Assembly: GCA_004524445.1 (NCBI GenBank)
Contig: SDNP01000050.1
Coordinates: 1 to 12,354, forward strand
DNA from: Candidatus Thorarchaeota archaeon
Lineage (GTDB): Archaea; Asgardarchaeota; Thorarchaeia; Thorarchaeales; Thorarchaeaceae
Reading direction: 5' to 3'
DNA length: 12,354 nt
Shown here: in pieces, positions 1 through 12,354 of the stretch
Layout of the letters: each line of letters opens with the position of its first letter
How positions within the stretch are numbered: the stretch's first letter is position 1
Translations under genes and position numbers: made by a program
The notes under the pieces: generated by a model
The model's database searches: none
What the model saw: only the letters and a program-made list of their open reading frames with translations
What the model was told of the DNA's origin: nothing

Positions 1-1842
1 CCATTAATTCCATTGCCTTCCATGATTGTTGCAACAATAATTGAGAGCAATTTCATGTTTATATCTGCCGCATTCATGGGCTTAATGGGCATATCCACAT
101 TGATTCAGGTAATCAGTTCAACCAGATTGAGAAATCAATTATCCTCAAATTACCCACGCATTGGCTGGTTACCAGCAGTACTTGGCATTCTTGTGGCAAT
201 CTACATATTGAGTAGCGTCTTCACGATTGGAAGTCCTGCTTCTATCGCGAATTACGTATTTTATAGTGCTTTCCTAGCATCCTTTTTTGTTATAACATGG
301 CAATTATGGTCGGTTGTATTCACGGATGCTAGCGAAGGATGGAAAGGTTTCTTTGCAGGAATTCTCAATGGATTTGCATTCCCGGCTTTAGCAATTGGGC
401 ACGCAATTAGCCCGATTGTAGTGTATTTGGCCTACATTGCACTCATAGGAGGGCAAGTATTTTCTGCATTGTATTGGTGGAGTCCATTAGCAAATACGAG
501 AGCATATGCAAGAAGTACTGACAAGGGCAAATTCGCCTTTGGATTAACAGGATTCTTGACCTCATTAGTTGGAGCAGTTGCAGTATTTGTAGGTCCACTA
601 CAATCAACGGGTGACGTTCAGGTATGGATTCCCTGGAGCGTATACACAGAAACTGGCTACGTAACTGACCCAACCCTCGTCTGGGGATTCTGTGCATCGC
701 TTCTGTTTTGGGTTATGCTTGGACCTAGATTAGGCAAGAAAGAAATCAAAGCCACGGTCGTTAGTGAGGACATTGTTACAGGAGGGAAGAAATACATCAT
801 GGCGTTTTTCGCCGCTCTTGGTCTAATTGGAGTTTATCTTGCACCAACTCTAGGTTTCGAAATTGAGATGGCAGGTTTTGCCATCCAGGGATTCAACCTC
901 TTCATAATCTGGGCTCCAGCAGCTGTGCTCTTCATGATGGGAGCCATTTATGCAGGAAGAACAGATGTTGTCACGGGACTCCCCCTTGTGCTTGCAGCTA
1001 TCTTCATTCTGGTGCATCCAGTAGTCCTCGCAAATTTCGTAATCATCGCATACATCATCCTGATTGTCACTCAGGCGTTATTGATGATCGAAACGAAGGT
1101 TAGAGGCCTCACCTACTTTCAACAAGGTACACTTTCTGTTATCGCCACACTGGCCTCTTCAGCAATGTTTGTGATGATTATACTTGGCGTGCTCGGAAGT
1201 GGTCCTCCCGCGCTCTGGCCAACTAATTTCTGGTTCAATGTGGAGCTGTTTGCAGGTATACCATTAGCCGTGCAGGCACCAGTTATCCTTGTGTTACCAA
1301 TGCTGGCCTTACTAGTCAGAAATGTGGCTATTGTTGGATATGCACATGGCCGGGGCATTAGCGGTGGAGATGTCCTAAGCGGATTGAGCATGCTCTTTGC
1401 ACTACTTATCCCCATTGTTGCTCAAGCATTCAAGGGTATTACTCACATGGCACTCACTGCTGCTGCAATCATGCTTGCCCTCTACGCAATAAGCTTTGCA
1501 CTGGTTTTGTCAGTCAACCTCAGTCTAGCTGAAAACGTAGAGGACACAGGCAATCCAATAGAGGGAATGTTGATCAGACTGACCACGATAGCAGGAATCG
1601 TATTTGGTGCACTTATCGCGGTTTACGTTCTAGCTACGTTCTCCGGATTTCCAAGTGCTCTTCAAGTATCGGGTGCAATTACCTGGCTAGTGATTCTAGT
1701 TACTGGACTCGAAATTCTCAACTTCATCGGCTGGTTATCAGCAGGAGCAAGATTGGGAATGCTTCGAAGTGGCTTCAAATTTATGAAGCACGAAGATCTA
1801 GTAAAAGAAGCAAGTTTGGCCCGCTCCGGATATGAAGAGTGA
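1..1842 (+). CDS. Large polytopic membrane protein of unknown function, probably 5'-truncated by the window edge
   Basis: The frame is open from base 1 (cca tta att cca TTG...), so the TTG at 13 is probably not the true start. Stop TGA is at 1840-1842. The 609+ aa are dominated by roughly 16-18 hydrophobic segments (by eye) with short charged loops. No transporter or enzyme signature was recognised. Confidence 0.85.
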   Translation, partial: PLIPLPSMIVATIIESNFMFISAAFMGLMGISTLIQVISSTRLRNQLSSNYPRIGWLPAVLGILVAIYILSSVFTIGSPASIANYVFYSAFLASFFVITWQLWSVVFTDASEGWKGFFAGILNGFAFPALAIGHAISPIVVYLAYIALIGGQVFSALYWWSPLANTRAYARSTDKGKFAFGLTGFLTSLVGAVAVFVGPLQSTGDVQVWIPWSVYTETGYVTDPTLVWGFCASLLFWVMLGPRLGKKEIKATVVSEDIVTGGKKYIMAFFAALGLIGVYLAPTLGFEIEMAGFAIQGFNLFIIWAPAAVLFMMGAIYAGRTDVVTGLPLVLAAIFILVHPVVLANFVIIAYIILIVTQALLMIETKVRGLTYFQQGTLSVIATLASSAMFVMIILGVLGSGPPALWPTNFWFNVELFAGIPLAVQAPVILVLPMLALLVRNVAIVGYAHGRGISGGDVLSGLSMLFALLIPIVAQAFKGITHMALTAAAIMLALYAISFALVLSVNLSLAENVEDTGNPIEGMLIRLTTIAGIVFGALIAVYVLATFSGFPSALQVSGAITWLVILVTGLEILNFIGWLSAGARLGMLRSGFKFMKHEDLVKEASLARSGYEE

Positions 1843-1864: not shown

Positions 1865-2614
1865 TTGGATGCGGAGGTTCGCGGAAGAACTCGCAAACCT
1901 TCACCATCCAATATTGCTTTTCTCCTGATTCATGGATTCTGTGCAGACATTGATGAAATGGTCAGTCTAGCTGACTTTCTCTATGATAGGAATATCGCTT
2001 CGTTTTCTGTACGTCTGAGTGGTCATGGAACCAAGCCTGAAGATTTAGCAACCAAAACTTGGAAAGATTGGTATACCTCAGCCAAGCAAGGGTTAGATTT
2101 TGTAAAGTCTTGGGACAAGCAGTACACCTTTATTTCTGGTTTATCAATGGGAGCATTGCTCTCTCTGAATCTTAGCATCAATGAAGCAGACCTTGCCGGA
2201 CAGATACTGTTCTCGCCAGCTGTCAAGATTGGGGGGATAGCCTCTAAATTCGTTCCCTTATTGAAGAGAATCATAAAATATCGAGAAGTCGATTTATCAT
2301 ACATTCCAGAGATATATGACCTTCCTAGAACGAAATATGCACGGGAACCACTATCCGCCATACATGAACTCCTCAAACTTGCAGATTATACACGACAGAT
2401 TCTTTCTGAGGTTCATATACCTACACTCATCATCCAAGCTGGCGCGGACAAAACCATAGATCCCTCAAGTGGAGAATATGTTTTGGACAACATTGCCTCA
2501 GAAGACAAACAACTACAAGTAATTGAAGCGGCCGAACATGTCATCACATGTCACCCCACAAGGAAAGATGCATATCACCATGTGGAAAAATTCATCCAAC
2601 GGATTATAAACTAG
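1865..2614 (+). CDS. Alpha/beta-hydrolase, carboxylesterase / monoacylglycerol lipase-like (Est30/bMGL-type)
   Basis: Contains the HGF oxyanion motif (LLIHGF), RLSGHGTKPEDL..TWKDW, the nucleophile elbow GLSMG (2138-2152), and candidate triad Asp (ADKTID) and His (AEHVI). TTG start with GGGAGTG about 11 nt upstream. An in-frame TGA at 1856 limits any extension. Confidence 0.9.
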   Translation: MDAEVRGRTRKPSPSNIAFLLIHGFCADIDEMVSLADFLYDRNIASFSVRLSGHGTKPEDLATKTWKDWYTSAKQGLDFVKSWDKQYTFISGLSMGALLSLNLSINEADLAGQILFSPAVKIGGIASKFVPLLKRIIKYREVDLSYIPEIYDLPRTKYAREPLSAIHELLKLADYTRQILSEVHIPTLIIQAGADKTIDPSSGEYVLDNIASEDKQLQVIEAAEHVITCHPTRKDAYHHVEKFIQRIIN

Positions 2615-2634
2615 CTATTTTCGTTAAAAGATTA

Positions 2635-3348
2635 TCATCGACTCATATCGAGTTCTTTCTTGAGCAAAACCCCGACGCCAGGAAAATCTGTTATGATTCC
2701 ATCAACACCCTGTTTAACTAAGTTCATCATTATATCCTTTTCGTTAACAGTCCAAGGAAATATTTTCAACTCAGCAGAATGAACCTGTCGAGTAAAATTC
2801 TCTGGTATCGTAAAAAAGAGTGGATTGATTGCATCCGCTTTGAGTTCCTTCGCTGTAGCGATAGATGATTTGTCTATTTCATTCAGCAGTAAGGCCGTTC
2901 TCGCATCAACATTGATATTTTTCAATTTTTCAACAACAGATGGAATAAAAGAAGAGAATAGAACAGAATCAAGCATTCCGCGATCATCTACTAACTTAAG
3001 AGCATCATGCTCAATATCGGGTACTTTTATCTCAATATTCAATTTCACTTTGCCCTTTGACCAAGCTAGAACATCAGTAAGCAGAGGTATTCGTTCCCCT
3101 CCACCCACATCCAACTTATATAATTCGGAGTAATCGGAATCACCCACAAATCCTTCGGTGGAGGTGAGCCTTGAAAGCTCGTAATCGTGAATAACCACCA
3201 ACTGTCCATCTTTGGTGTTCTGTAAGTCAAGTTCAATCATATCGACCCCGATTTCCCAGGCTTTCTGAAAGGACAGCATTGTATTCTCGGGAGCAACAGT
3301 GGGAGCTCCTCTATGTCCAATAATCAGAGGTGCAGAAGATAGTAGCAT
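2635..3348 (-). CDS. Glycerophosphodiester phosphodiesterase (GDPD, UgpQ/GlpQ family), cytoplasmic type
   Basis: Hallmark motifs IIGHRG, PENT, IELDLQ.TKDG.LVVIHD, NIEIK, FSSF, WTVN and GVDGIITDFP. No signal peptide is visible. Confidence 0.95.
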   Translation of the reverse strand: MLLSSAPLIIGHRGAPTVAPENTMLSFQKAWEIGVDMIELDLQNTKDGQLVVIHDYELSRLTSTEGFVGDSDYSELYKLDVGGGERIPLLTDVLAWSKGKVKLNIEIKVPDIEHDALKLVDDRGMLDSVLFSSFIPSVVEKLKNINVDARTALLLNEIDKSSIATAKELKADAINPLFFTIPENFTRQVHSAELKIFPWTVNEKDIMMNLVKQGVDGIITDFPGVGVLLKKELDMSR

Positions 3349-3353
3349 TGGAT

Positions 3354-3362
3354 GACCTCCTC
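3354..3362 (-). promoter_or_regulatory. Shine-Dalgarno-like ribosome binding site of the GDPD gene
   Basis: The minus strand reads GAGGAGGTCATCCA-ATG, with GGAGGT 6 nt before the ATG at 3348. Confidence 0.7.
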
Positions 3363-3416
3363 AAAACATTATGAATATCGTTGTCAGGTTTTAGTATGCC
3401 TCACAGCGTATGGATT

Positions 3417-3719
3417 TCATGAGGAACTGCCTTCAGGTGCAATTCCTGTTCCACCGCACCGAGGACAGATAATCTCTTCTCCAGATTCCTCAGCTTTGCC
3501 GGTGCCATTGCAGTAGTAACACATTTCCCGCTCAGAATCAAGTGACTGATCATACCCTTTCACTATTGCACCCCCGATGCCAAGAAGAATAATCCCCACA
3601 AACATTAGAATCAAGGATAATACGTAATATTCTGCAATGGGCAAAATCAGTATGATCGATGCCAAGAAAATTACAGCACCGAGGCCCAGCAGGATTGCCC
3701 CTTTCTCTTTTTTCCTCAT
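3417..3719 (-). CDS. Small two-TM membrane protein with a C-terminal DnaJ-type cysteine-rich zinc finger (2 x CxxCxGxG)
   Basis: The likely start is the ATG at 3719 (MRKKEKG..., 100 aa); the ORF track extends it to a GTG at 3773. Two hydrophobic helices are followed by CYYCNGTG and CPRCGGTG. No J-domain or HPD motif. Confidence 0.85.
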   Translation of the reverse strand: MRKKEKGAILLGLGAVIFLASIILILPIAEYYVLSLILMFVGIILLGIGGAIVKGYDQSLDSEREMCYYCNGTGKAEESGEEIICPRCGGTGIAPEGSSS

Positions 3720-3896
3720 TTTAGTCACCAAAGGTGTTTGTGTATTCAATATCAAGGGAGAGAGATTTGCCACACATCAATATCGGTCTGCAGCAACTCT
3801 CTGCTTTATACCTTATGGCATAACGTCATAGATTGGTCGCTAATAACATCACCCTAAGAGATTAATAGACGAAACAGGCAAGCTATAGTGCACTAG

Positions 3897-4823
3897 GTGG
3901 TTATGAATTTGTCAAGGACAGATCTTTTCTCAAGATATAGCCAGATATACCGTAAATCACGAGCCAAGGAAATAGTGCCGGATGGCCTTTTTGTCCGACA
4001 ATTAGCTGATTTGCCGCGATATGGCATGAATATTGGGATATTTTTCAAAGAAAAAGGTCTAAAAAAGGCTAGGCAAATCTTCATAGGGGAACCGCTGCCA
4101 TTTTCCTTATCTTCAGAAGAAGGATTTTTTGAAGCAGAGGATGACATGTACCTAACAAGGACCATTATCTCCGAGTTTAAACAACTGGACTACCTCAAGA
4201 TATCTATTGCTTCTGGAAGTTTTCTTGAGCAACAACAAGACCGAATTCAGTTCCTTAAGAGGTGCCAAGGAATAGTTGATACGCTGCTTCGGAAAACGAG
4301 AAATATTGTGCATTTTGGCAGCTTCAAACCGCTTCTGTACGCTCGCAAGATTAGGACACTGGACGAGTTTTTGAAGAAAGCAGTAAAACTTGATGATGTG
4401 TCGCGCGAGGCGGCAAGGATACCATTTGATGTTGCAGAGCCGGAATATATACTTCTTAGCGGGAATGATTTGATAGTAATGAAAGATGAGCCCCAAGTCC
4501 ATCAGGGGGTCTATCATTTCGTTGGAGGAATTGGCTACACGTTTGACAAGAAAGTTGGAGCCGTAAATGAGGAACAAATGTTCCGTCCTAATGTGGATTG
4601 GACTTCGGTAGGAATTGATGCCGCTTATGTGGAGGCAAATATTTCTAGGGTTACTGAGGATTTTCAAACCAATATTCATTCACTCATTTTCAGCGATATC
4701 TGGAAGAAGGTCGACAGCAATCCGGTTGCAGTGAATATTGATAAGAATCTGCTAATCAAGCCTGAGCCATCCAGTGACATTTGGGCAGGAGTATTCGAAG
4801 TATATCTTAAGCCGCCTGAATAA
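3897..4823 (+). CDS. Hypothetical soluble protein (about 306-308 aa)
   Basis: A long ORF that fills the gap between neighbours, with globular composition. Start is GTG 3897 or ATG 3903. No motif recognised. Confidence 0.8.
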   Translation: MVMNLSRTDLFSRYSQIYRKSRAKEIVPDGLFVRQLADLPRYGMNIGIFFKEKGLKKARQIFIGEPLPFSLSSEEGFFEAEDDMYLTRTIISEFKQLDYLKISIASGSFLEQQQDRIQFLKRCQGIVDTLLRKTRNIVHFGSFKPLLYARKIRTLDEFLKKAVKLDDVSREAARIPFDVAEPEYILLSGNDLIVMKDEPQVHQGVYHFVGGIGYTFDKKVGAVNEEQMFRPNVDWTSVGIDAAYVEANISRVTEDFQTNIHSLIFSDIWKKVDSNPVAVNIDKNLLIKPEPSSDIWAGVFEVYLKPPE

Positions 4824-4843
4824 TCGTGCAAAGAAGAAGGGCT

Positions 4844-6424
4844 CTACCTGAAGGCATCAACAGCTTGGACAACTGCCCGTAGGGCATATATTCTGAATGT
4901 ATATGTGATGGGAACCGCATCTGTTGACTCTAGAATTGCTTCCAAGTCAGTTAGAAAATCAGATCCAAACAAACCTAGCCCGCTGACCAAATCAATGACA
5001 GTAACTGACTGGGCACCATTTCCTAATGATATGGCGATGTCATCTGCAAGAGCATCTACCTCATGATACGGGTCAATAGGTTCTCGATTAGGGGGGAAAA
5101 ATGGGATGATTTCACCAAGTCTGAGGCTGATAATTCCTGAGCCCTGCAAGTTTGAAAATGCATAACACAAATACTCTCCAACATCGCCTGCCATATAATT
5201 AGAAAACGAGGTTCGAATACACTCTACTTGGCTGTTGGGAAACCTCTCCAAAATCTCCGGAGTGACTCCACAGGCAAGCATTATGGTGCTATCACCATCA
5301 ATTGTGTCATCTAGTACAAAGCTATTTACAATAAGGCCAGGCGATAGATTGTTTCCCTCACACGTCATTTCTAGTTGATGTCCATATAACTCAAGGGACG
5401 ACTGATTGATTGACGTAATACTTGCACTTACTAAGCTTGAGAAACCGTACAAGTCGATTTCGCGAATCTCACTCATGAATAGCGCTTCTTCCTCGGGAGA
5501 GAGTGTCATATCGAAAAGAACAGAGGCCGGATAGGATTCCGTAAGAGTTGAATTTAATACTTCGAGCAAGGCGATAACCATTGATGAGTATCTCTGATAT
5601 AGTCCCAGAATAATTTCATTTGTTCCTAATACGGTAGGATTTCGGGGTACCAAATCGGTCCTATTTGCATCCAAGGTAATCGAATATTCGATGTCATTGC
5701 CGGTCACATTTCCAAGTACAGATCCCAATGTATTCCAAGCATCATTGTTGCCATAATTGACCACAAGCTCCAATCCAAAACCAGTATCCTTCAAATCTTG
5801 AATCAGCTTCGAGTCATCATTGAGAATATTATCTTCATATAATACTTGATTCATATCGAGCGTAAAGTAAACCCCGCCTTCTCCCTCATAGTTCATTGAA
5901 TTTATCGGAGTACTTCCCATCAAATAGACAGATACAGGGAATAGGAAACCTATCAGATTCAGCAGAAGTAGGTATGCTATTGCTCTCTTGCTAATTGACG
6001 AACGGTCAATTTCCAATGTTATTTCGGTTGTCATGATGAGCCAGAAAGAAGAGGTGAAATTGACGAATGAGATGATTATGAACGCAACAGCGAGTGGAGA
6101 TATGACTGCAAAAACTGCACCTGCTATGGCCATTACTGCAATTGATGGGACTTTACTCAGTCCCTTGTAATGTGCGCGAATAATGAGAGAGAGAAACACG
6201 AATAATGGCATAACGTACATTGCTATCGGAAGAGAATCGACTAAGGTGAGCCCTGCGACTTGCAGACGAAATACGATGGAGACCAGCACGTAGCCAATCA
6301 ATATCGTGTCAAGAAGTAAAACAACTAGTATACTATATTTCGATGCAAGGCCAATTCTTCTACTATTCCGAGCAAAATCAGCAAGTGTGGGAAGGAGAGG
6401 CCCATATCTTCTTTCCTTTTTCAT
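4844..6424 (-). CDS. Membrane-anchored protein with about 5 N-terminal TM helices and a large acidic, probably extracellular C-terminal domain
   Basis: Basic N-terminus, hydrophobic segments up to about residue 170, then about 355 D/E-rich residues with several N-x-S/T sequons (NVT, NRT, NST, NQS, NLS). Confidence 0.85.
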   Translation of the reverse strand: MKKERRYGPLLPTLADFARNSRRIGLASKYSILVVLLLDTILIGYVLVSIVFRLQVAGLTLVDSLPIAMYVMPLFVFLSLIIRAHYKGLSKVPSIAVMAIAGAVFAVISPLAVAFIIISFVNFTSSFWLIMTTEITLEIDRSSISKRAIAYLLLLNLIGFLFPVSVYLMGSTPINSMNYEGEGGVYFTLDMNQVLYEDNILNDDSKLIQDLKDTGFGLELVVNYGNNDAWNTLGSVLGNVTGNDIEYSITLDANRTDLVPRNPTVLGTNEIILGLYQRYSSMVIALLEVLNSTLTESYPASVLFDMTLSPEEEALFMSEIREIDLYGFSSLVSASITSINQSSLELYGHQLEMTCEGNNLSPGLIVNSFVLDDTIDGDSTIMLACGVTPEILERFPNSQVECIRTSFSNYMAGDVGEYLCYAFSNLQGSGIISLRLGEIIPFFPPNREPIDPYHEVDALADDIAISLGNGAQSVTVIDLVSGLGLFGSDFLTDLEAILESTDAVPITYTFRIYALRAVVQAVDAFR

Positions 6425-6539
6425 TCTGCAAAGACTCCATCATCTTCTAGCTACCGAGTTTATTCCGAACGTAAAGGGCCTGCACTTATACATATGTTTT
6501 GAGTAGGAACCAACAAAAACAAGTAGGCACATTCTAGAA

Positions 6540-7754
6540 ATGCATAGTATGCGTGATGTAGCTATTGTAGGAGCAGGACCAGCAGGGTCAACATGTGCGA
6601 GATATCTAGCAAGAGCTGGTCATGATGTCATCCTAATCGATAAGGAAGAGTTTCCTCGAGATAAACCGTGTGGCGGCGGCTTCTCATCGGACATCATCGA
6701 TGAATTCTCATATCTCAAAGATAAAACTGATGAATTTCTAGATGGTATATGCAAAGTGGGTATTTTGCACTCGCCAAATCGAAGGATATCATTACATTCT
6801 AGAGTAGAGATGGCAGTGGCGCTCCGAACGAAATTTGATGCGGCACTATTTGATGCCGCTGTTGAAGCTGGAGTCAACACCAGACAAAAGAGCTTTGTGA
6901 AAGGAGTTCAAATCAAGAAAGATAAGGTGACTATTCATCTATCTAGCGGCGATCAGATTGATTGCAAAGCAATTGTTGGAGCAGATGGAGTCAACAGCAT
7001 TGTTGCAAGAAAAACAGGTCTCAATAAGATGTGGTCGACCAAAGATGTGACTCCCTGTAGGGTTTCAGAGATTCCAGTTGAACAGAAAGAGATAGACGAG
7101 ATGTATTCAAAGGAGAGAAGATATCACTTCTTTGCAAATTTCAATAATCTGCCTGGATATGGTTGGATATTTCCAAAGCTCAAAACTGTTAATGTTGGGA
7201 TTGGGGTGATGGGTCCGAAGGCTACAGGCCTCCCAATGCTTTTCCAAAGATTCATTGGATTCCTAGAGTACAAGGGACTATTACCTCTGAATTCGGATAT
7301 CTCTGCTGCAAAGGGAGCTATAGTACCCACTGGTGGCACAATTGATAGGACTTCGTGTGAAAGATGCATTCTGATGGGTGATGCTGCAGGCATGGTAAAT
7401 CCTCTGACAGGCGGGGGGATTGGATACGCAATGCAAGCTGGTAGAATTGGAGCAAAGGTTTTATCGAAGCACCTTCAAGAAGATAATCTCAGTAAGGATG
7501 CTCTGAAGATCTATGATGAGTTATGGAGAGCAGAGTTCGGACATGAGATCGGTCCTCTAAAACTGGTGCAGCGCTTGTTTACCAGTTCATTTACATCAGC
7601 CTTGTTTGAAATAGGATCCAGAGATGATGAGCTTCAGAAAATGGTCGCATCTGTTATGACTGAAATGGATGAATCCAAGCCCAGTACTTCTAGTATTGCC
7701 GCTAGAGCCCTATTAGTATGTATACGGGAGGCATTTCATCTCAGGAAATCTTGA
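6540..7754 (+). CDS. Geranylgeranyl reductase family FAD-dependent oxidoreductase (digeranylgeranylglycerophospholipid reductase-like)
   Basis: Motifs DVAIVGAGPAG (FAD-binding), PRDKPCGGG, R.KFDA.L, IVGADG..S, PGYGWIFPK and LMGDAAG.VNPLTGGGI. The start may be the second Met (MRDVAIV). The substrate cannot be determined from sequence. Confidence 0.92.
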   Translation: MHSMRDVAIVGAGPAGSTCARYLARAGHDVILIDKEEFPRDKPCGGGFSSDIIDEFSYLKDKTDEFLDGICKVGILHSPNRRISLHSRVEMAVALRTKFDAALFDAAVEAGVNTRQKSFVKGVQIKKDKVTIHLSSGDQIDCKAIVGADGVNSIVARKTGLNKMWSTKDVTPCRVSEIPVEQKEIDEMYSKERRYHFFANFNNLPGYGWIFPKLKTVNVGIGVMGPKATGLPMLFQRFIGFLEYKGLLPLNSDISAAKGAIVPTGGTIDRTSCERCILMGDAAGMVNPLTGGGIGYAMQAGRIGAKVLSKHLQEDNLSKDALKIYDELWRAEFGHEIGPLKLVQRLFTSSFTSALFEIGSRDDELQKMVASVMTEMDESKPSTSSIAARALLVCIREAFHLRKS

Positions 7755-7836
7755 TATTCTTGCCATCAAATTTCAACGCAAAGAATAAATTGGAGCAAAA
7801 TACTGTTACGCAGTATGAGCTGATATACGCAAGGCT

Positions 7837-9528
7837 ATGGGAGAGATTAAATTGGATAGACCCTGGTACGACCACTATGTCGGTGATACACCGCGTGAAA
7901 TTACAATTCCTGATGGCCCACTTTGGGCTTATCTTGACAGAGCAGTTGAAGAGTTTCCTGATAACATGGCTCTTCACTATGAAGGAGTAGAGATGACCTA
8001 CCGGGAGCTTGGTGAACTTGTTGATAAGGCAGCAAATGGGTTCGCCAGACTCGGTGTGACAAAAGGAGATACTGTGGCAATCATGTTGCCTAATTGTCCA
8101 CAATTTGTCATATCTTACTTCGGAGCTCTAAAAGCGGGAGCGACTGTTACGCCAGTCAATCCTATGAGCATGCCTAAGGAATTGAGAATATATCTTCAAG
8201 ATACGGGAGCCAAGACTATGGTTACTCTGAACTTCTTCTACAAGACTGTGAATGCTGTCAGACAGGAGAGTAACCTGGAGAATGTGATTGTCACCGCTGC
8301 TTGGGACCCAATGAGTAAGCTAAAGCAAATACTGGCTCCGCTTTTAGTCTACAGGAAGCAGATGAAGGATGTACCCCCTCTTCAGGAAGGCGACTTGGAG
8401 TGGAATGAATGGCTGGATCGATCAGTTCCCGAGCCACCTGTTGTCGTCGTTGACCCTAGTAAAGACCTAGCGGTATACCAATTTACTGGAGGCACGACAG
8501 GGATACCAAAAGCTGCTATGCTGACTCACAACAATTTGAAGGCAAACTGTGAGCAATGTGGTGCTTGGATGTCGTGGATGGCTGATAGAGGAAAGGAGCT
8601 TTTCGTAGCAGCTTTGCCAATGCAGCATATCTTCGGGCAGACAGTGTCAATGAACCTTGCGATATCATGGGGTTGTGGAATAATTCTCATTCCCGATCCA
8701 AGAGATATAGAGAATCTGCTTGGCAAGATGGACAAGCTGAATCCAACTTTCTTCCCCATTGTCGCAACGCTTGCTATCGCTATATACAGCTCCGATGTCG
8801 TCGATAAGTATGACATAACTTCACTCAAGCTTTCAATTGCTGGAGCCATGGCGCTGCCCGCAGAAGTCACAAGGAAGTTTGAGGAGGCAACAAATTCAAT
8901 CATTATTGAGGGCTACGGATTGACCGAAGCTTCACCCGTGACTCATGCTAACCCTCTTGACAAGGAAGCACGGAGGATTGGGTCTATTGGTTTGCCTTTC
9001 CCCAGCACGGATAGCAAAATCGTTGATTTGGATGACAGGTCAAAGGACCTTCCCGCTGGCGAGGTAGGCGAGCTGGGTGTCAAGGGACCGCAGGTCATGC
9101 AGGGGTACCACAATCGTCCGGAGGAAACAGAAAACGTACTTACTGATGACGGGTGGTTGTTTACTGGAGATATTGCAAAGATGGATCCAGACGGCTGGAC
9201 ATACATTGTTGACCGCAAGAAGGATCTCATCAACGCTTCCGGATTCAAAGTCTGGCCCCGTGATGTCGAAGAAGTCCTCTTTGAACATCCTAAGGTGAAG
9301 GAAGCAGCTGTTGTAGGTGTTCCTGACGAAGTTCGAGGAGAAACTGTAAAAGCGTTCATTGTCCTCGAACCCGGCGAGTCATCTTCTCTAGAGGAGATTC
9401 GCTCGTTCTGTAAGGAAAAAATGGCAGCCTATAAGGTTCCCACTGATGTGGAGTTTGTGGAAACACTTCCCAAATCAATGGTGGGTAAAGTCCTGAGAAG
9501 GGAACTTAGAGAACAAGAAGAAGAATGA
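7837..9528 (+). CDS. fadD: Long-chain-fatty-acid--CoA ligase (ANL adenylate-forming family)
   Basis: AMP-binding loop QFTGGTTGIPKAA, EGYGLTEASP, GPQVMQGY, TGDI, IVDRKKDLI and the C-terminal catalytic Lys in LPKSMVGK. Chain-length specificity is assumed from overall similarity. Confidence 0.92.
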   Translation: MGEIKLDRPWYDHYVGDTPREITIPDGPLWAYLDRAVEEFPDNMALHYEGVEMTYRELGELVDKAANGFARLGVTKGDTVAIMLPNCPQFVISYFGALKAGATVTPVNPMSMPKELRIYLQDTGAKTMVTLNFFYKTVNAVRQESNLENVIVTAAWDPMSKLKQILAPLLVYRKQMKDVPPLQEGDLEWNEWLDRSVPEPPVVVVDPSKDLAVYQFTGGTTGIPKAAMLTHNNLKANCEQCGAWMSWMADRGKELFVAALPMQHIFGQTVSMNLAISWGCGIILIPDPRDIENLLGKMDKLNPTFFPIVATLAIAIYSSDVVDKYDITSLKLSIAGAMALPAEVTRKFEEATNSIIIEGYGLTEASPVTHANPLDKEARRIGSIGLPFPSTDSKIVDLDDRSKDLPAGEVGELGVKGPQVMQGYHNRPEETENVLTDDGWLFTGDIAKMDPDGWTYIVDRKKDLINASGFKVWPRDVEEVLFEHPKVKEAAVVGVPDEVRGETVKAFIVLEPGESSSLEEIRSFCKEKMAAYKVPTDVEFVETLPKSMVGKVLRRELREQEEE

Positions 9529-9583: not shown

Positions 9584-10144
9584 TCAATCAACAGGATTGA
9601 GTACATCTGTTTGTAAATCAGTAATCAGAGAGTGAAGCTCAGGGCGACCAAGCAATTTTCTCCTCGTTTCGCTCATATTGTTGATGACGCATGCCACCCC
9701 AATGACTTGTGCTCCCAGCTTGTTAATGGCCTTTGTAACAGCCAAAACGGTGGTGCCTTGAATGAGCCAATCATCAACAACTGCAACTCTATCTCCTTGA
9801 TCAATTGATTCCGAAACAAGTGCCAACCTTCTGTCAGCAAATCTACTTGATGGCATCCATTCAACAGGACGAGCATAGTCCTCGGGCAAGTAGGCTATCG
9901 ACCGAGCAGGAACAATACCACAACCAAGATAATATGCAATTGCACTTCCAAGTGCTAAACCTCTCTGCTCAATTCCTACAACCTTATTTGGCTGAAGTTC
10001 AACAAGGGGTTTAGCGAGCTTGACAACAGCTTCGTGAAAGATGCTGGGATGTTCCAAGAGCCTACTGATGTCACATACCGCTTTTCCCGGTTCAGGCCAA
10101 TCTTCTATTACGTCAACGTAGTCTCGGAAATCAATGTCTGTCAT
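9584..10144 (-). CDS. Adenine phosphoribosyltransferase-like protein (type I PRTase fold) with divergent active-site motifs
   Basis: Colinear with APRT: DWPEPG...DIS.LL, KVVGIEQRG..LG, and a PRPP-loop-like RVAVVDDWLIQGTT. The start is probably the ATG at 10144, preceded by SD-like GAGGTTGA; the ORF track gives an ATG at 10180. Confidence 0.88.
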   Translation of the reverse strand: MTDIDFRDYVDVIEDWPEPGKAVCDISRLLEHPSIFHEAVVKLAKPLVELQPNKVVGIEQRGLALGSAIAYYLGCGIVPARSIAYLPEDYARPVEWMPSSRFADRRLALVSESIDQGDRVAVVDDWLIQGTTVLAVTKAINKLGAQVIGVACVINNMSETRRKLLGRPELHSLITDLQTDVLNPVD

Positions 10145-10151
10145 TCTCGTG

Positions 10152-10159
10152 TCAACCTC
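10152..10159 (-). promoter_or_regulatory. Shine-Dalgarno-like site supporting the 10144 start of the APRT-like gene
   Basis: The minus strand reads GAGGTTGA-CACGAGA-ATG. Confidence 0.5.
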
Positions 10160-10337
10160 GGTCTCCAAAAGTCTAAGCATAGGAGATATTTCTTTCTGTT
10201 TGGATAAAATTGGCTGTCACCTTTAAGTCTACAGGCTCAGGTGCGAAAAGATTAAGACTCGGAATAGGCAGAGGTATTCATGACTTGAATGGAGTTGCAA
10301 GGCTCTGAGAATACCAGGCACAACGATTTCCATTGCA

Positions 10338-11555
10338 TTGCTACCAGGATATGTCGAGGTGCGGGATAAGGGATCTATCAAGAAAAAAATCAAGGTGAAA
10401 CGCAAATCCTTCGAGGATATTCAAAAAGAACTCCAAACCTTTCTTCGATACAATGGCAAGGTATTAGCACCAGGAATCCTGGAGGAAACTATGGATCAAA
10501 TCGGCGTAAGAGAAGCCACTGTCTCTTCAGGAGCGAAGGCTCAAGCTGCAAGAGAGGTGCCTTTGGATGACGAACCCAAACCGTCAACAACTGTCAAAAA
10601 AGAAGTTTCGGCCATTATAGCTGAGAGCATTGATAGTCAGTCTGATGAGGATTCGAATCTTGAATCAGGTGACTTAGATGGCTTCCAAGAGGCTCTATCC
10701 GCTGTGGATGAAATCAGTGACAAGTTCTTGTCCCCCACATCTCATGATGAAGCTGTCAAAGCGCCAAAGGTCAAGGTATCGTTTTCAGGGAAATCAGAAA
10801 TCACTGCCTCATCAAAAACACGCGCCACTCAGGTGAGGCCAATCCCGAAGCAATCAGTTGACGAATCTACTCGAGAAGAAACAGAAACAGGTTTGGAGCA
10901 AGAACTCCGGGCAGAATCCACAGATGGAGTTGCCGTGGAGAAAGAAACCAAACTGAATAAGACTCCTGCGCATGTCATTAAACCGTTGGTAGAGACCAAA
11001 GTAATCATACTTGGAGAAGAGGGAGTAGGCAAGGGTTCGCTCCTTCGGAATGCGGAATTTAGTCCAGAATTATATGACGAAGATGCAGAGGTTGTCGAGC
11101 CATATGCATATTCCAAAACATATGAACTTGAGAATCATAGAGTTAAAACGAAAGTGTGGCTCTTCGATAAGGCGGCTGATTTGAATATATCACGCGTAGA
11201 GTATTACTCTAATGCCAGCGTCATAATAATCGTTTACTCCGTAGCAGATAGATGGAGCTTTGATAGCATTGAGTTCTGGTTGAAAGAGGCTGCAATGCAT
11301 TATGAAAGCCAGCCACCAATAGTCATTGTGGGGAATAAGAAGGATTTGAGAGAGGCGCCTGCTGAATTTGATGAACTGGATGATGCCGCCGTTTCAACAG
11401 ACGAGGGCTTTGCTCTTGCTGAAGAAATGGCAAAGAAACTGGGAGAAGAGGATCAACTGCACCCTGTGGCATTTATCGAATGTAGCTGCTTGTCAGGTGA
11501 AGGAATTGATGATGTATTCCGGACTGCAGCAGAGCTATTTGAGAAGTCACTGTAA
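10338..11555 (+). CDS. Ras-superfamily (Rab-like) small GTPase domain protein with a long N-terminal extension and degenerate G motifs
   Basis: The C-terminal ~185 aa contain KVIILGEEGVGKGS (G1), YYSNASVIIIVYSVADRWSF..I.FWL.E (Rab/Ras-like), IVIVGNKKDL (G4) and FIECSC..GEGIDDVF (G5). The start is uncertain: TTG 10338, with the frame open back to 10284 and a CTG at 10305. Confidence 0.9.
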   Translation: MLPGYVEVRDKGSIKKKIKVKRKSFEDIQKELQTFLRYNGKVLAPGILEETMDQIGVREATVSSGAKAQAAREVPLDDEPKPSTTVKKEVSAIIAESIDSQSDEDSNLESGDLDGFQEALSAVDEISDKFLSPTSHDEAVKAPKVKVSFSGKSEITASSKTRATQVRPIPKQSVDESTREETETGLEQELRAESTDGVAVEKETKLNKTPAHVIKPLVETKVIILGEEGVGKGSLLRNAEFSPELYDEDAEVVEPYAYSKTYELENHRVKTKVWLFDKAADLNISRVEYYSNASVIIIVYSVADRWSFDSIEFWLKEAAMHYESQPPIVIVGNKKDLREAPAEFDELDDAAVSTDEGFALAEEMAKKLGEEDQLHPVAFIECSCLSGEGIDDVFRTAAELFEKSL

Positions 11556-11670: not shown

Positions 11671-11985
11671 TTGATTACAATAACCGAGAAGCGCTGTGAA
11701 AGCTGTGGTAAGGTTTTCGAAATGCCAACCAGAGCAAAAACACTAGAAGATAACTTCACTCATGAGAAAATGAGAGATCTCTGTATTTGTGAAGAGTGTT
11801 TTCATAAGCGGTTTAGCATTGAAACAAAAAAGAGCAGTGGCTATGGCGGAACCATTTATGAACTTGAAGAAAAGGGTCAGCCAAGATTTGGATTGGGAAG
11901 CAAGTCATTCACCTGCTTGAAATGCGCTTGGGTAGCCTGGACTGAGGAAGGACTCCTCGCTCACATGAACCATAGACATGAATAG
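11671..11985 (+). CDS. Small zinc-binding protein: N-terminal C4-type site plus a C-terminal C2H2 zinc finger
   Basis: Contains CESC...CICEEC and FTCLKC-AWVAWTEEGLLA-HMNHRH (C-x2-C-x12-H-x4-H). TTG start. Confidence 0.85.
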   Translation: MITITEKRCESCGKVFEMPTRAKTLEDNFTHEKMRDLCICEECFHKRFSIETKKSSGYGGTIYELEEKGQPRFGLGSKSFTCLKCAWVAWTEEGLLAHMNHRHE

Positions 11986-11988
11986 AAT

Positions 11989-12354
11989 TCAGACCCTCTT
12001 CTCTATTTCTTTAGGGTCAACCACTCTGATCATTTCATGGCCTCGCAATCGGACACCATTAACCTTTGCTGCAGCATTCTCCAGTATACCCATTCGGTAT
12101 ACAGTAGTTCTGGGACCGTGACCTTTGAGCCACTTCAAGGACGATAATTCAAGCTTGTCGTTTTCTGTGAAGTAAATCGCAAGGTCGGTAGCCAAAGCAT
12201 TCGTTCTATCAAACATGGCTGCTGCAAAACCAGCGCTGGGAGCTGCAAAGCCAGCTATCACCCAGATTATGATTAATGGATCCTGACCGTAATACTCGAA
12301 GAAGAAAATAAACCCTGCAAATATAGGCTGTACTAGTGCAAGGATTACCAAGAA
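11989..12354 (-). CDS. 3' end of a hypothetical membrane protein (5'-truncated by the window edge)
   Basis: The frame is open to the right edge. Two hydrophobic segments are followed by a soluble tail. The stop lies 3 nt from the convergent zinc-finger gene stop. Confidence 0.75.
   Translation of the reverse strand, partial: FLVILALVQPIFAGFIFFFEYYGQDPLIIIWVIAGFAAPSAGFAAAMFDRTNALATDLAIYFTENDKLELSSLKWLKGHGPRTTVYRMGILENAAAKVNGVRLRGHEMIRVVDPKEIEKRV

Follow-up and report, generated by a model that had tools for sequence, protein, structure and literature searches.

A probable Rab-derived pseudoGTPase fused to a family-specific N-terminal domain in Thorarchaeota

The 12,354-nucleotide stretch analysed here (the window), which is the whole of contig SDNP01000050.1 (contig C11 of the 64 contigs, 2.79 Mb in all, of a Candidatus Thorarchaeota archaeon genome), carries on its forward strand a Ras-like gene whose product keeps the guanine-recognition motif of Rab-like GTPases and lacks residues that handle Mg2+ and the gamma-phosphate. 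The locus raises the question of whether such a protein is still a GTP-driven switch, a decaying copy of one, or a G fold that has been put to another use. Our preferred answer, to which we give a probability of about 0.6, is that the gene encodes a Rab-derived pseudoGTPase: a three-part Thorarchaeota adaptor in which the G domain no longer works as a GTP-driven switch and probably holds a guanine nucleotide. The initial annotation had already proposed a Rab-like pseudoGTPase, and this is still the best reading in view of the profile matches, the substitutions shared among orthologs and the purifying selection described below; the nucleotide binding that it also proposed is read from the NKxD motif. 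The parts of the gene are as follows.

10305-11555, forward strand: whole gene, 416 amino acids (aa), with the start placed at a near-cognate CTG (10305) and a TAA stop ending at 11555
10305-10532, forward strand: N-terminal domain (residues 1-76), family-specific, a three-strand beta-meander followed by three helices in the AlphaFold2 model
10533-10979, forward strand: acidic, Ser/Lys-rich linker (residues 77-225), disordered according to AlphaFold2 confidence
10980-11552, forward strand: Ras/Rab-fold G domain (residues 226-416), from Pfam, AlphaFold2 and Foldseek
11013-11039, forward strand: degenerate G1 motif (P-loop) GEEGVGK-G-S, in which GGT at 11034-11036 (Gly) takes the position of the Walker-A Ser/Thr (Ras Ser17)
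11058-11123, forward strand: switch-I equivalent FSPELYDEDAEVVEPYAYSKTY, without the conserved G2 Thr; Val lies opposite the conserved Thr of TIG in the paralog alignment
11157-11180, forward strand: G3/switch-II equivalent WLFDKAAD, with no in-register Walker-B Asp, no DxxG Gly and no Gln
11334-11345, forward strand: intact G4 motif NKKD (AAT AAG AAG GAT), a form of the NKxD found family-wide
11478-11489, forward strand: G5-like ECSC, with Ser kept and the canonical Ala replaced by Cys

Altered G motifs in a conserved Ras/Rab fold

The G domain has a Ras/Rab fold. The Pfam Ras model (PF00071) matches residues 221-399 of a 405-aa reading of the gene (E-value 4.4e-24, 85.3 bits against a cut-off of 21.6), and the Roc and Arf models match more weakly, so that all three families that the initial annotation had named for a profile search were matched, Ras best. 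The best sequence matches in the PDB are Ypt1, Rab11 and Sec4, with Rho proteins scoring similarly. In a full-length AlphaFold2 model built with a 76-sequence alignment, the predicted local distance difference test (pLDDT) of the G domain is about 96, and the top Foldseek matches of this domain are Rab11b, Rab8a, Sec4, RhoG and RhoA (E-value about 5e-13, TM-score about 0.8 by target), many of the top structures being GDP-bound, Mg-free or nucleotide-free complexes with guanine nucleotide exchange factors; the solved Thorarchaeota Rab 7eze is also among the matches.

Within this fold the nine codons GGA GAA GAG GGA GTA GGC AAG GGT TCG specify GEEGVGKGS, and the phmmer alignment to Ypt1 (GNSGVGKSC) puts the Gly of the window protein opposite the Mg-ligating Ser22. 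The segment WLFDKAA is aligned, without a gap, opposite WDTAGQE of Ypt1, a register in which Leu occupies the Walker-B (Ras Asp57) position and the Asp of FDK comes two residues later. In the model a helix begins directly after strand beta-3, at the site of the canonical DxxG loop, and behind NKKD lies an acidic insert some 10 residues long. The protein ends in ELFEKSL, without Cys and hence without a prenylation motif.

We asked how far these features depart from those of other G domains in the same genome, which holds about 25 Ras-family matches, the window gene being 16th by score. When 22 other Ras-superfamily paralogs were extracted and aligned with MAFFT, all 22 were found to keep GK[S/T], the switch-I Thr and the Gly at the DxxG position; nearly all have the DxxG Asp, which is followed by Gln in most, and their G5 motif reads [ST]SA[KL], with Ala kept. 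Compared with these 22, the window gene alone deviates in G1, G2 and G3 simultaneously. Since the 22 paralogs are canonical in the same alignment register, which is also that of the phmmer alignment to Ypt1, the deviation is real and specific to the window gene. The initial descriptions of G1, with Gly at the Mg-ligating position, of a switch I without the G2 Thr, of WLFDKAAD standing where WDTAGQE would be, without the DxxG Gly or Gln, of an intact G4 and of a C-terminus without a prenylation Cys are thus borne out, by alignment for the first three, and the coordinates first given for the motifs agree with the sequence. The description of G5 as intact holds for its Ser and fails for the Ala of SA(K/L), which is Cys here.

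The altered motifs are shared by a family. A search of 5.8 billion proteins yielded 120 relatives, of which almost all carry a Thorarchaeota label and have 400-500 aa, and a representative library added 40 more; the motif counts below refer to the 142 members with a recognisable G domain.

P-loop Lys (Ras Lys16): Lys in 80, Val in 47, Ile in 13; lost in 62 of 142
Ras Ser17 position (position 8): Asn 39, Arg 23, Lys 21, Gly 20, Ser 17, His 8, Gln 6, Glu 4, Ala 3, Leu 1; Ser 12%, Thr 0% (n = 142)
Residue after the Ser17 position (position 9): Ser/Thr in 137 of 142
DxxG: 0 of 142; consensus W-[ST]-F-[DEP]-x-[AS]-[VM]
G4: [GA]NKxD in 142 of 142
G5: E[TC]S[CTS]; the canonical Ala is Cys, Ser or Thr in nearly all of the family

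The Thr position of switch I is likewise not conserved across the family, and the equivalent of Phe28 is aliphatic in most members. Ser or Thr stands at the Walker-B position, one residue after the switch-II Trp (W+1), in 127 of 142 members, Asp or Glu at W+3 in 96 and Lys, Arg or His at P-loop position 8 in 52. In switch II, W285 is invariant and F287 and F300 nearly so, and the motifs DRWSF and FWLxE are also conserved. The family falls into two clades. Clade 1, which includes the window gene, keeps GxxGVGK; the Lys-less clade has P-loops of the GEEGVGVNS and GERGVGIKS types and has also lost the Asp at W+3 (WTFPKS), and it shares the N-terminal domain, the linker motifs and the G-domain substitutions with the window gene. 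No member of the Lys-less clade was found in the genome of the window. In this genus Gly at P-loop position 8 goes with Lys at switch-II position W+4, but a possible covariation of the two positions was set aside, as other members with Gly at position 8 have Glu at W+4.

The loss of several catalytic motifs, together with the absence of a canonical start codon before the conserved N-terminus, could also be what remains of a Rab-like GTPase in decay. However, the frame of 416 codons is intact, the predicted fold is of high confidence, and single-copy orthologs with the same substitutions occur, in conserved synteny, in 54 of 59 genomes of the same GTDB family. The G domain is 89% identical to that of a same-genus ortholog, and the ratio of nonsynonymous to synonymous substitution rates against this ortholog (dN/dS, Nei-Gojobori) is 0.036 in the G domain, 0.17 in the N-terminal domain, 0.22 in the linker and 0.11 overall. 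The gene is under strong purifying selection, and the value of 0.036 in the G domain means that it is not decaying. The substitutions in G1-G3 are common to the orthologs, and canonical G1-G3, which would have marked this copy as merely decaying, was not seen among the 142 relatives; judged from these alignments, the motif losses are ancient within the family and maintained by selection. We therefore rejected the pseudogene reading, to which purifying selection, the family-wide substitutions and the distribution in 54 of 59 genomes leave next to no probability.

A probable guanine-nucleotide-holding domain without a switch

The residues absent from the protein are the Mg2+ ligands (Walker-A Ser/Thr and switch-I Thr), the positioner of the Mg-bound water (Walker-B Asp), the gamma-phosphate sensor (DxxG Gly) and the positioner of the catalytic water (Gln). 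In a G domain these residues couple conformation to the GTP or GDP state and enable efficient hydrolysis. A selected G-domain fold in which catalytic and nucleotide-handling G motifs have been lost places the gene, by its sequence, among the pseudoGTPases. In such a protein Mg2+ would not be coordinated and the gamma-phosphate would not be sensed, so that neither conformational cycling between GTP and GDP nor meaningful GTP hydrolysis would be expected. A guanine nucleotide would most likely still serve as a structural cofactor, bound weakly and in the absence of Mg as in Ras S17N or Mg-free RhoA-GDP. The rigidified and conserved switch-II/alpha-3 surface (W285, F287, DRWSF, FWLxE) could then serve as a constitutive protein-binding platform, the disordered tether and the N-terminal domain would link this docking face to something else, and the zinc-finger protein encoded immediately downstream would be the best candidate for a functional partner.

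The argument for a bound nucleotide lies in G4. We know of no role for the Asp of NKxD except reading the guanine base, and since this Asp is invariant, clade-1 members probably still bind guanine nucleotide. Several points weigh against the reading as a whole. The invariant NKxD is the single line of evidence from which nucleotide binding by the G domain is inferred; other base-contacting elements are altered, the G5 Ala being replaced by Cys, Ser or Thr and the Phe28 equivalent being mostly aliphatic; the loss of the P-loop Lys in part of the family suggests an inability to bind nucleotide in at least some members; the Ser/Thr at position 9 (96%) and at the Walker-B position (127/142) may form an unconventional metal/phosphate site; some GTPase families still hydrolyse GTP when only the Gln is missing, for example those with a hydrophobic residue there; and it is gene neighbourhood that suggests the zinc-finger partner.

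The first of these points lead to the possibility that the protein is a nucleotide-free (class i) pseudoGTPase, in which the G fold would be purely a protein-interaction module and NKxD would be kept for structure. The loss of the P-loop Lys in 62 of 142 members, the family-wide replacement of the G5 Ala and the unconserved Phe28 equivalent all speak for it, as does the sub-clade of the window gene, which has the most degenerate G1 (Gly) and Walker-B (Leu) positions; partner-binding nucleotide-free pseudoGTPase domains are documented, for instance in AAGAB (PMC12490416). On the other hand, the 142 sequences share only about 30-40% identity and yet all have NKxD, and clade 1, the window gene included, keeps GxxGVGK. 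Known nucleotide-free pseudoGTPases usually degenerate at G4 and G5 too, and the lack of another known role for the NKxD Asp tells in the same direction. We consider a nucleotide-free protein doubtful for these reasons.

The relocated polar residues could alternatively belong to a non-canonical but functional GTPase or switch, whose metal/phosphate site would have been rebuilt from the Ser/Thr at position 9 (137/142), the Ser/Thr at the Walker-B position (127/142), the acidic residue at W+3 (96/142, Asp in the window protein) and the basic residue at position 8 (52/142), and GTPases that work without the canonical Gln do exist. However, several of these proposed substitutes are missing from the window protein, whose residues at position 8 and W+1 are Gly and Leu; there is no switch-II Gly for a flip coupled to the gamma-phosphate and no conserved switch-I Thr; and a small residue at position 9 is common in canonical GTPases too, so that its conservation is not special. 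An active switch is thus unlikely. Since the NKxD pocket is invariant while the phosphate/Mg site is eroded, it is also conceivable, though very unlikely in our judgement, that the G domain senses a guanine ligand other than Mg-GTP/GDP (guanosine, GMP or a guanine-based signal) and that, with an APRT-like phosphoribosyltransferase (PRTase) encoded next to it and the zinc-finger protein, it would form a Thorarchaeota purine-status module.

The pseudoGTPase that we favour can be set against several known systems. Thor-Rab is a canonical Thorarchaeota Rab-like protein that binds GDP/Mg and GTP-gamma-S (PDB 7EZB, 7EZD and 7EZE; Tran et al. 2024, PMC10933270). Thor-Rab shares its Ras/Rab fold and its phylum with the window protein and likewise has no C-terminal prenylation Cys, which is also absent from canonical Asgard Rab-like proteins. 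It stands alone, however, with about 190 aa and canonical G1-G3, whereas the window protein, of 416 aa, has an N-terminal domain and a linker in addition and none of the Walker-A Ser/Thr, switch-I Thr and DxxGQ. PseudoGTPases are established in eukaryotes, and their stated range extends from bacteria to human (PMC12490416). The window family is like the eukaryotic ones in that the G fold has been kept under selection after the loss of catalytic motifs, presumably as a protein-interaction scaffold, and unlike them in its independent, archaeal origin. Eukaryotic examples include CENP-M, the pG domains of p190RhoGAP and AAGAB, while Rnd and RhoH are inactive forms with bound nucleotide; a classification of pseudoGTPases is reportedly due to Stiegler and Boggon. 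Nucleotide-free eukaryotic examples usually lose G4 and G5 as well, whereas this family has lost the G1 Ser/Thr, G2 and G3 with G4 invariant, and Rnd and RhoH, unlike it, keep G1-G3 and change only catalytic residues.

Loss of the Mg-ligating Ser, as in Ras S17N or the Ser-to-Asn mutants of Rab proteins, is expected to give weak, Mg-independent, GDP-biased nucleotide binding. These mutants and Mg-free RhoA-GDP (PDB 1DPF) resemble the window protein in the loss of Mg ligation by this Ser, and 1dpf is among the top structural matches; yet in them a true switch with intact G3 has been put into an engineered or artificial state, whereas in the window family the loss is natural, fixed family-wide and combined with the loss of DxxG. 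In the literature searched on pseudoGTPases and inactive Ras-superfamily proteins in archaea or Asgard archaea we found no description of an archaeal family, and the loss pattern, the domain architecture and the gene partner differ from those of described pseudoGTPases. The family could be regarded as a natural experiment, in which guanine recognition is kept and Mg/gamma-phosphate handling lost, and could reveal what degree of degeneration a G domain can tolerate without ceasing to bind nucleotide.

Domain architecture, gene start and origin

Although the protein had been read as a lone G domain, it consists of three parts, among them an N-terminal domain specific to the family, and its gene has a conserved partner, the zinc-finger gene. 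The N-terminal domain has a pLDDT of 90.7 when modelled alone and above 95 in the full-length model. It has no match in Pfam, and its profile, run against 1.84 billion representative proteins, retrieved 44 clusters, essentially all with the same architecture or fragments of it. Structural searches with this domain gave nothing in the PDB at an E-value of 0.001 or below (Foldseek); the VIA wide fold search reached a Z of 5.6 at best (ribosomal proteins, with partial matches to PH/PTB/EVH1-like folds), which is below a meaningful level; and the ESM Atlas returned unrelated bacterial hypothetical proteins with a TM-score of 0.5-0.63 at best when searched by shape and no usable match when searched by features. 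The linker has pLDDT values below 50 at residues 84-119 and 146-214, separated by a helix at residues 124-142 (pLDDT 73-82). A helix motif, DLDGFQEALSAVDEISDKFLSP (about 10665-10730), is conserved in the linker, as are the motifs KVxVSxSGKxEIxAS and TPAHVIKPLV, and D123, A130, L131, D139 and F141 are invariant or nearly so in the 76 sequences.

The N-terminal domain also bears on the start of the gene. The open reading frame (ORF) first described, 10338-11555 on the forward strand, is free of stops, and the stop-to-stop frame begins at 10284, after a stop at 10281-10283. Across the family the N-termini read M/L/V-x-[IV]-PGTT, and the counterpart in the window, L-R-I-PGTTISIALLPGYVEVRDKG, lies upstream of TTG 10338. 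Since position 1 of the N-terminal domain profile maps to 10305, since TTG 10338 is TTA in the same-genus ortholog, and since all four substitutions between 10305 and 10350 relative to the same-genus genome are synonymous, the start must lie upstream of 10338, so that the TTG first proposed is too late. The window has no in-frame ATG, GTG or TTG between the stop and 10338, and the same-genus genome likewise has none in frame before its conserved N-terminus; CTG 10305 is one mutation away from the TTG start of several orthologs. Initiation is thus most likely at the near-cognate CTG 10305, giving 416 aa, and the gene-caller choices for this gene and its close relatives, TTG 10338 and GTG 10395, were rejected in its favour. 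The existing records are truncated: that of the window gene begins at Met52, and those of close relatives at the equivalents of GTG 10395. Scans for sigma-70 promoters and intrinsic terminators were uninformative for an archaeon.

We examined the origin of the family by a maximum-likelihood tree (LG+C20 PMSF) of 38 family G domains, the window gene and 19 paralogs from its genome, which is midpoint-rooted and without eukaryotic sequences and in which long-branch effects are possible. All family members group together (monophyly supported at 100/100), and the stem that leads to them is long, at 1.79 substitutions per site. The family splits into the Lys-retaining clade with the window gene and the Lys-less clade, and is nested among the canonical Thorarchaeota Rab-like paralogs of this one genome, with two of them (C2:6339 and C42:15340) as its sister group (support 97/83). 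One of these two closest canonical paralogs (G000:C42:14773-15891, reverse strand) is a 373-aa open frame in which an N-terminal canonical Rab-like G domain is joined by a disordered acidic linker to a coiled-coil-like region at the C-terminus, a domain order opposite to that of the window protein.

The N-terminal domain profile detects the family in 54 of 59 genomes of one GTDB family (f1) and in the one genome of its sister family (f2), and in 0 of 190 genomes sampled from 26 other Asgard families. On this sequence evidence the family is a derived, lineage-restricted innovation. The sister-family ortholog (L023, G019:C21, about 4385-6154, reverse strand) is a 590-aa open frame whose linker contains a long stretch of tandem repeats of the ETKVEAP(A/T) type, and its P-loop, GEDDVGMSS, has Met in place of Lys. 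The large Asgard expansions of Ras-superfamily GTPases are usually discussed as forerunners of eukaryotic trafficking switches. The relevance to the evolution of eukaryotic signature proteins that had been suggested for this gene looks slight, the family being a derived offshoot, confined to one lineage, of canonical Thorarchaeota Rab-like genes; it would not be ancestral to eukaryotic systems, and its impact is limited accordingly. What it indicates is that one Asgard lineage also evolved a "dead-enzyme scaffold" use of the G fold, independently of eukaryotes, and extended the degenerate G domain by a disordered tether and a new N-terminal domain.

Neighbouring genes

The Ras-like gene is flanked by the following genes.

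11671-11985, forward strand: zinc-finger gene, co-oriented downstream partner gene, 104 aa, with CxxC...CxxC and a C2H2-type CxxC-x12-H-x4-H
9584-10180, reverse strand: divergently transcribed APRT-like phosphoribosyltransferase gene (Pfam Pribosyltran, E-value 3e-13)
11989-12354, reverse strand: convergent gene, truncated in the window by the end of the contig (6976-7623, reverse strand, in the relative locus L013), with a product of about 214 aa

This order, a divergent APRT-like gene, the Ras-like gene, the zinc-finger gene and the convergent gene, is conserved in 11 relative loci of the same GTDB family. The zinc-finger protein has 23 invariant columns among 18 orthologs; it carries an invariant SGYGGTIYELEEK...PRFGLGS core besides the N-terminal CxxC...CxxC and the C-terminal C2H2-type finger, and matches Pfam zf-C2H2 only below threshold. 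Its gene is single-copy, occurs in 17 of 18 relatives of the same GTDB family, is restricted to this one family, and in each of the 18 genomes that carry it, the window's included, is the next gene downstream of the Ras-like gene; the sole family genome without it (97% complete) is also without a clear Ras-like ortholog. The pairing, as genomic evidence, supports a functional link between the two genes, with the zinc-finger protein as the best candidate partner. A complex prediction with the N-terminal domain and helix, the G domain, the zinc-finger protein and two Zn scored 0.00, below the mark, and speaks neither for nor against binding.

Of the 11 relative loci checked first, 10 have the APRT-like gene next to the Ras-like gene, as do the longer stretches fetched later, and the APRT-like product is 66-94% identical across the same-family loci examined. 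The protein falls far below the NCBIfam cut-offs for APRT (104 bits against 224) and may be a non-canonical PRTase. The gene is not adjacent in the sister-family genome, where the ortholog of the Ras-like gene lies in another context, as does the Lys-less paralog, which in the one locus examined stands without APRT-like or zinc-finger genes. The protein of about 214 aa has no Pfam match above threshold and a weak sub-threshold match to H+-pyrophosphatase; beyond its gene, the longer stretches from relatives continue with an ABC ATPase and a MacB/FtsX-type permease of roughly 936 aa.

Further upstream, the window carries a lipid-related cluster at 1865-9528, with a Hydrolase_4/MGL-like alpha/beta hydrolase, a GDPD phosphodiesterase, a geranylgeranyl-reductase-family protein and a long-chain acyl-CoA ligase, and the order of the reductase, ligase and APRT-like genes is also kept in several relatives. 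Three long ORFs have no Pfam or NCBIfam match, at 1-1842 (forward strand, 613 aa), 3897-4823 (forward strand, 308 aa) and 4844-6424 (reverse strand, 526 aa); the 308-aa and 526-aa products have orthologs in related genomes.

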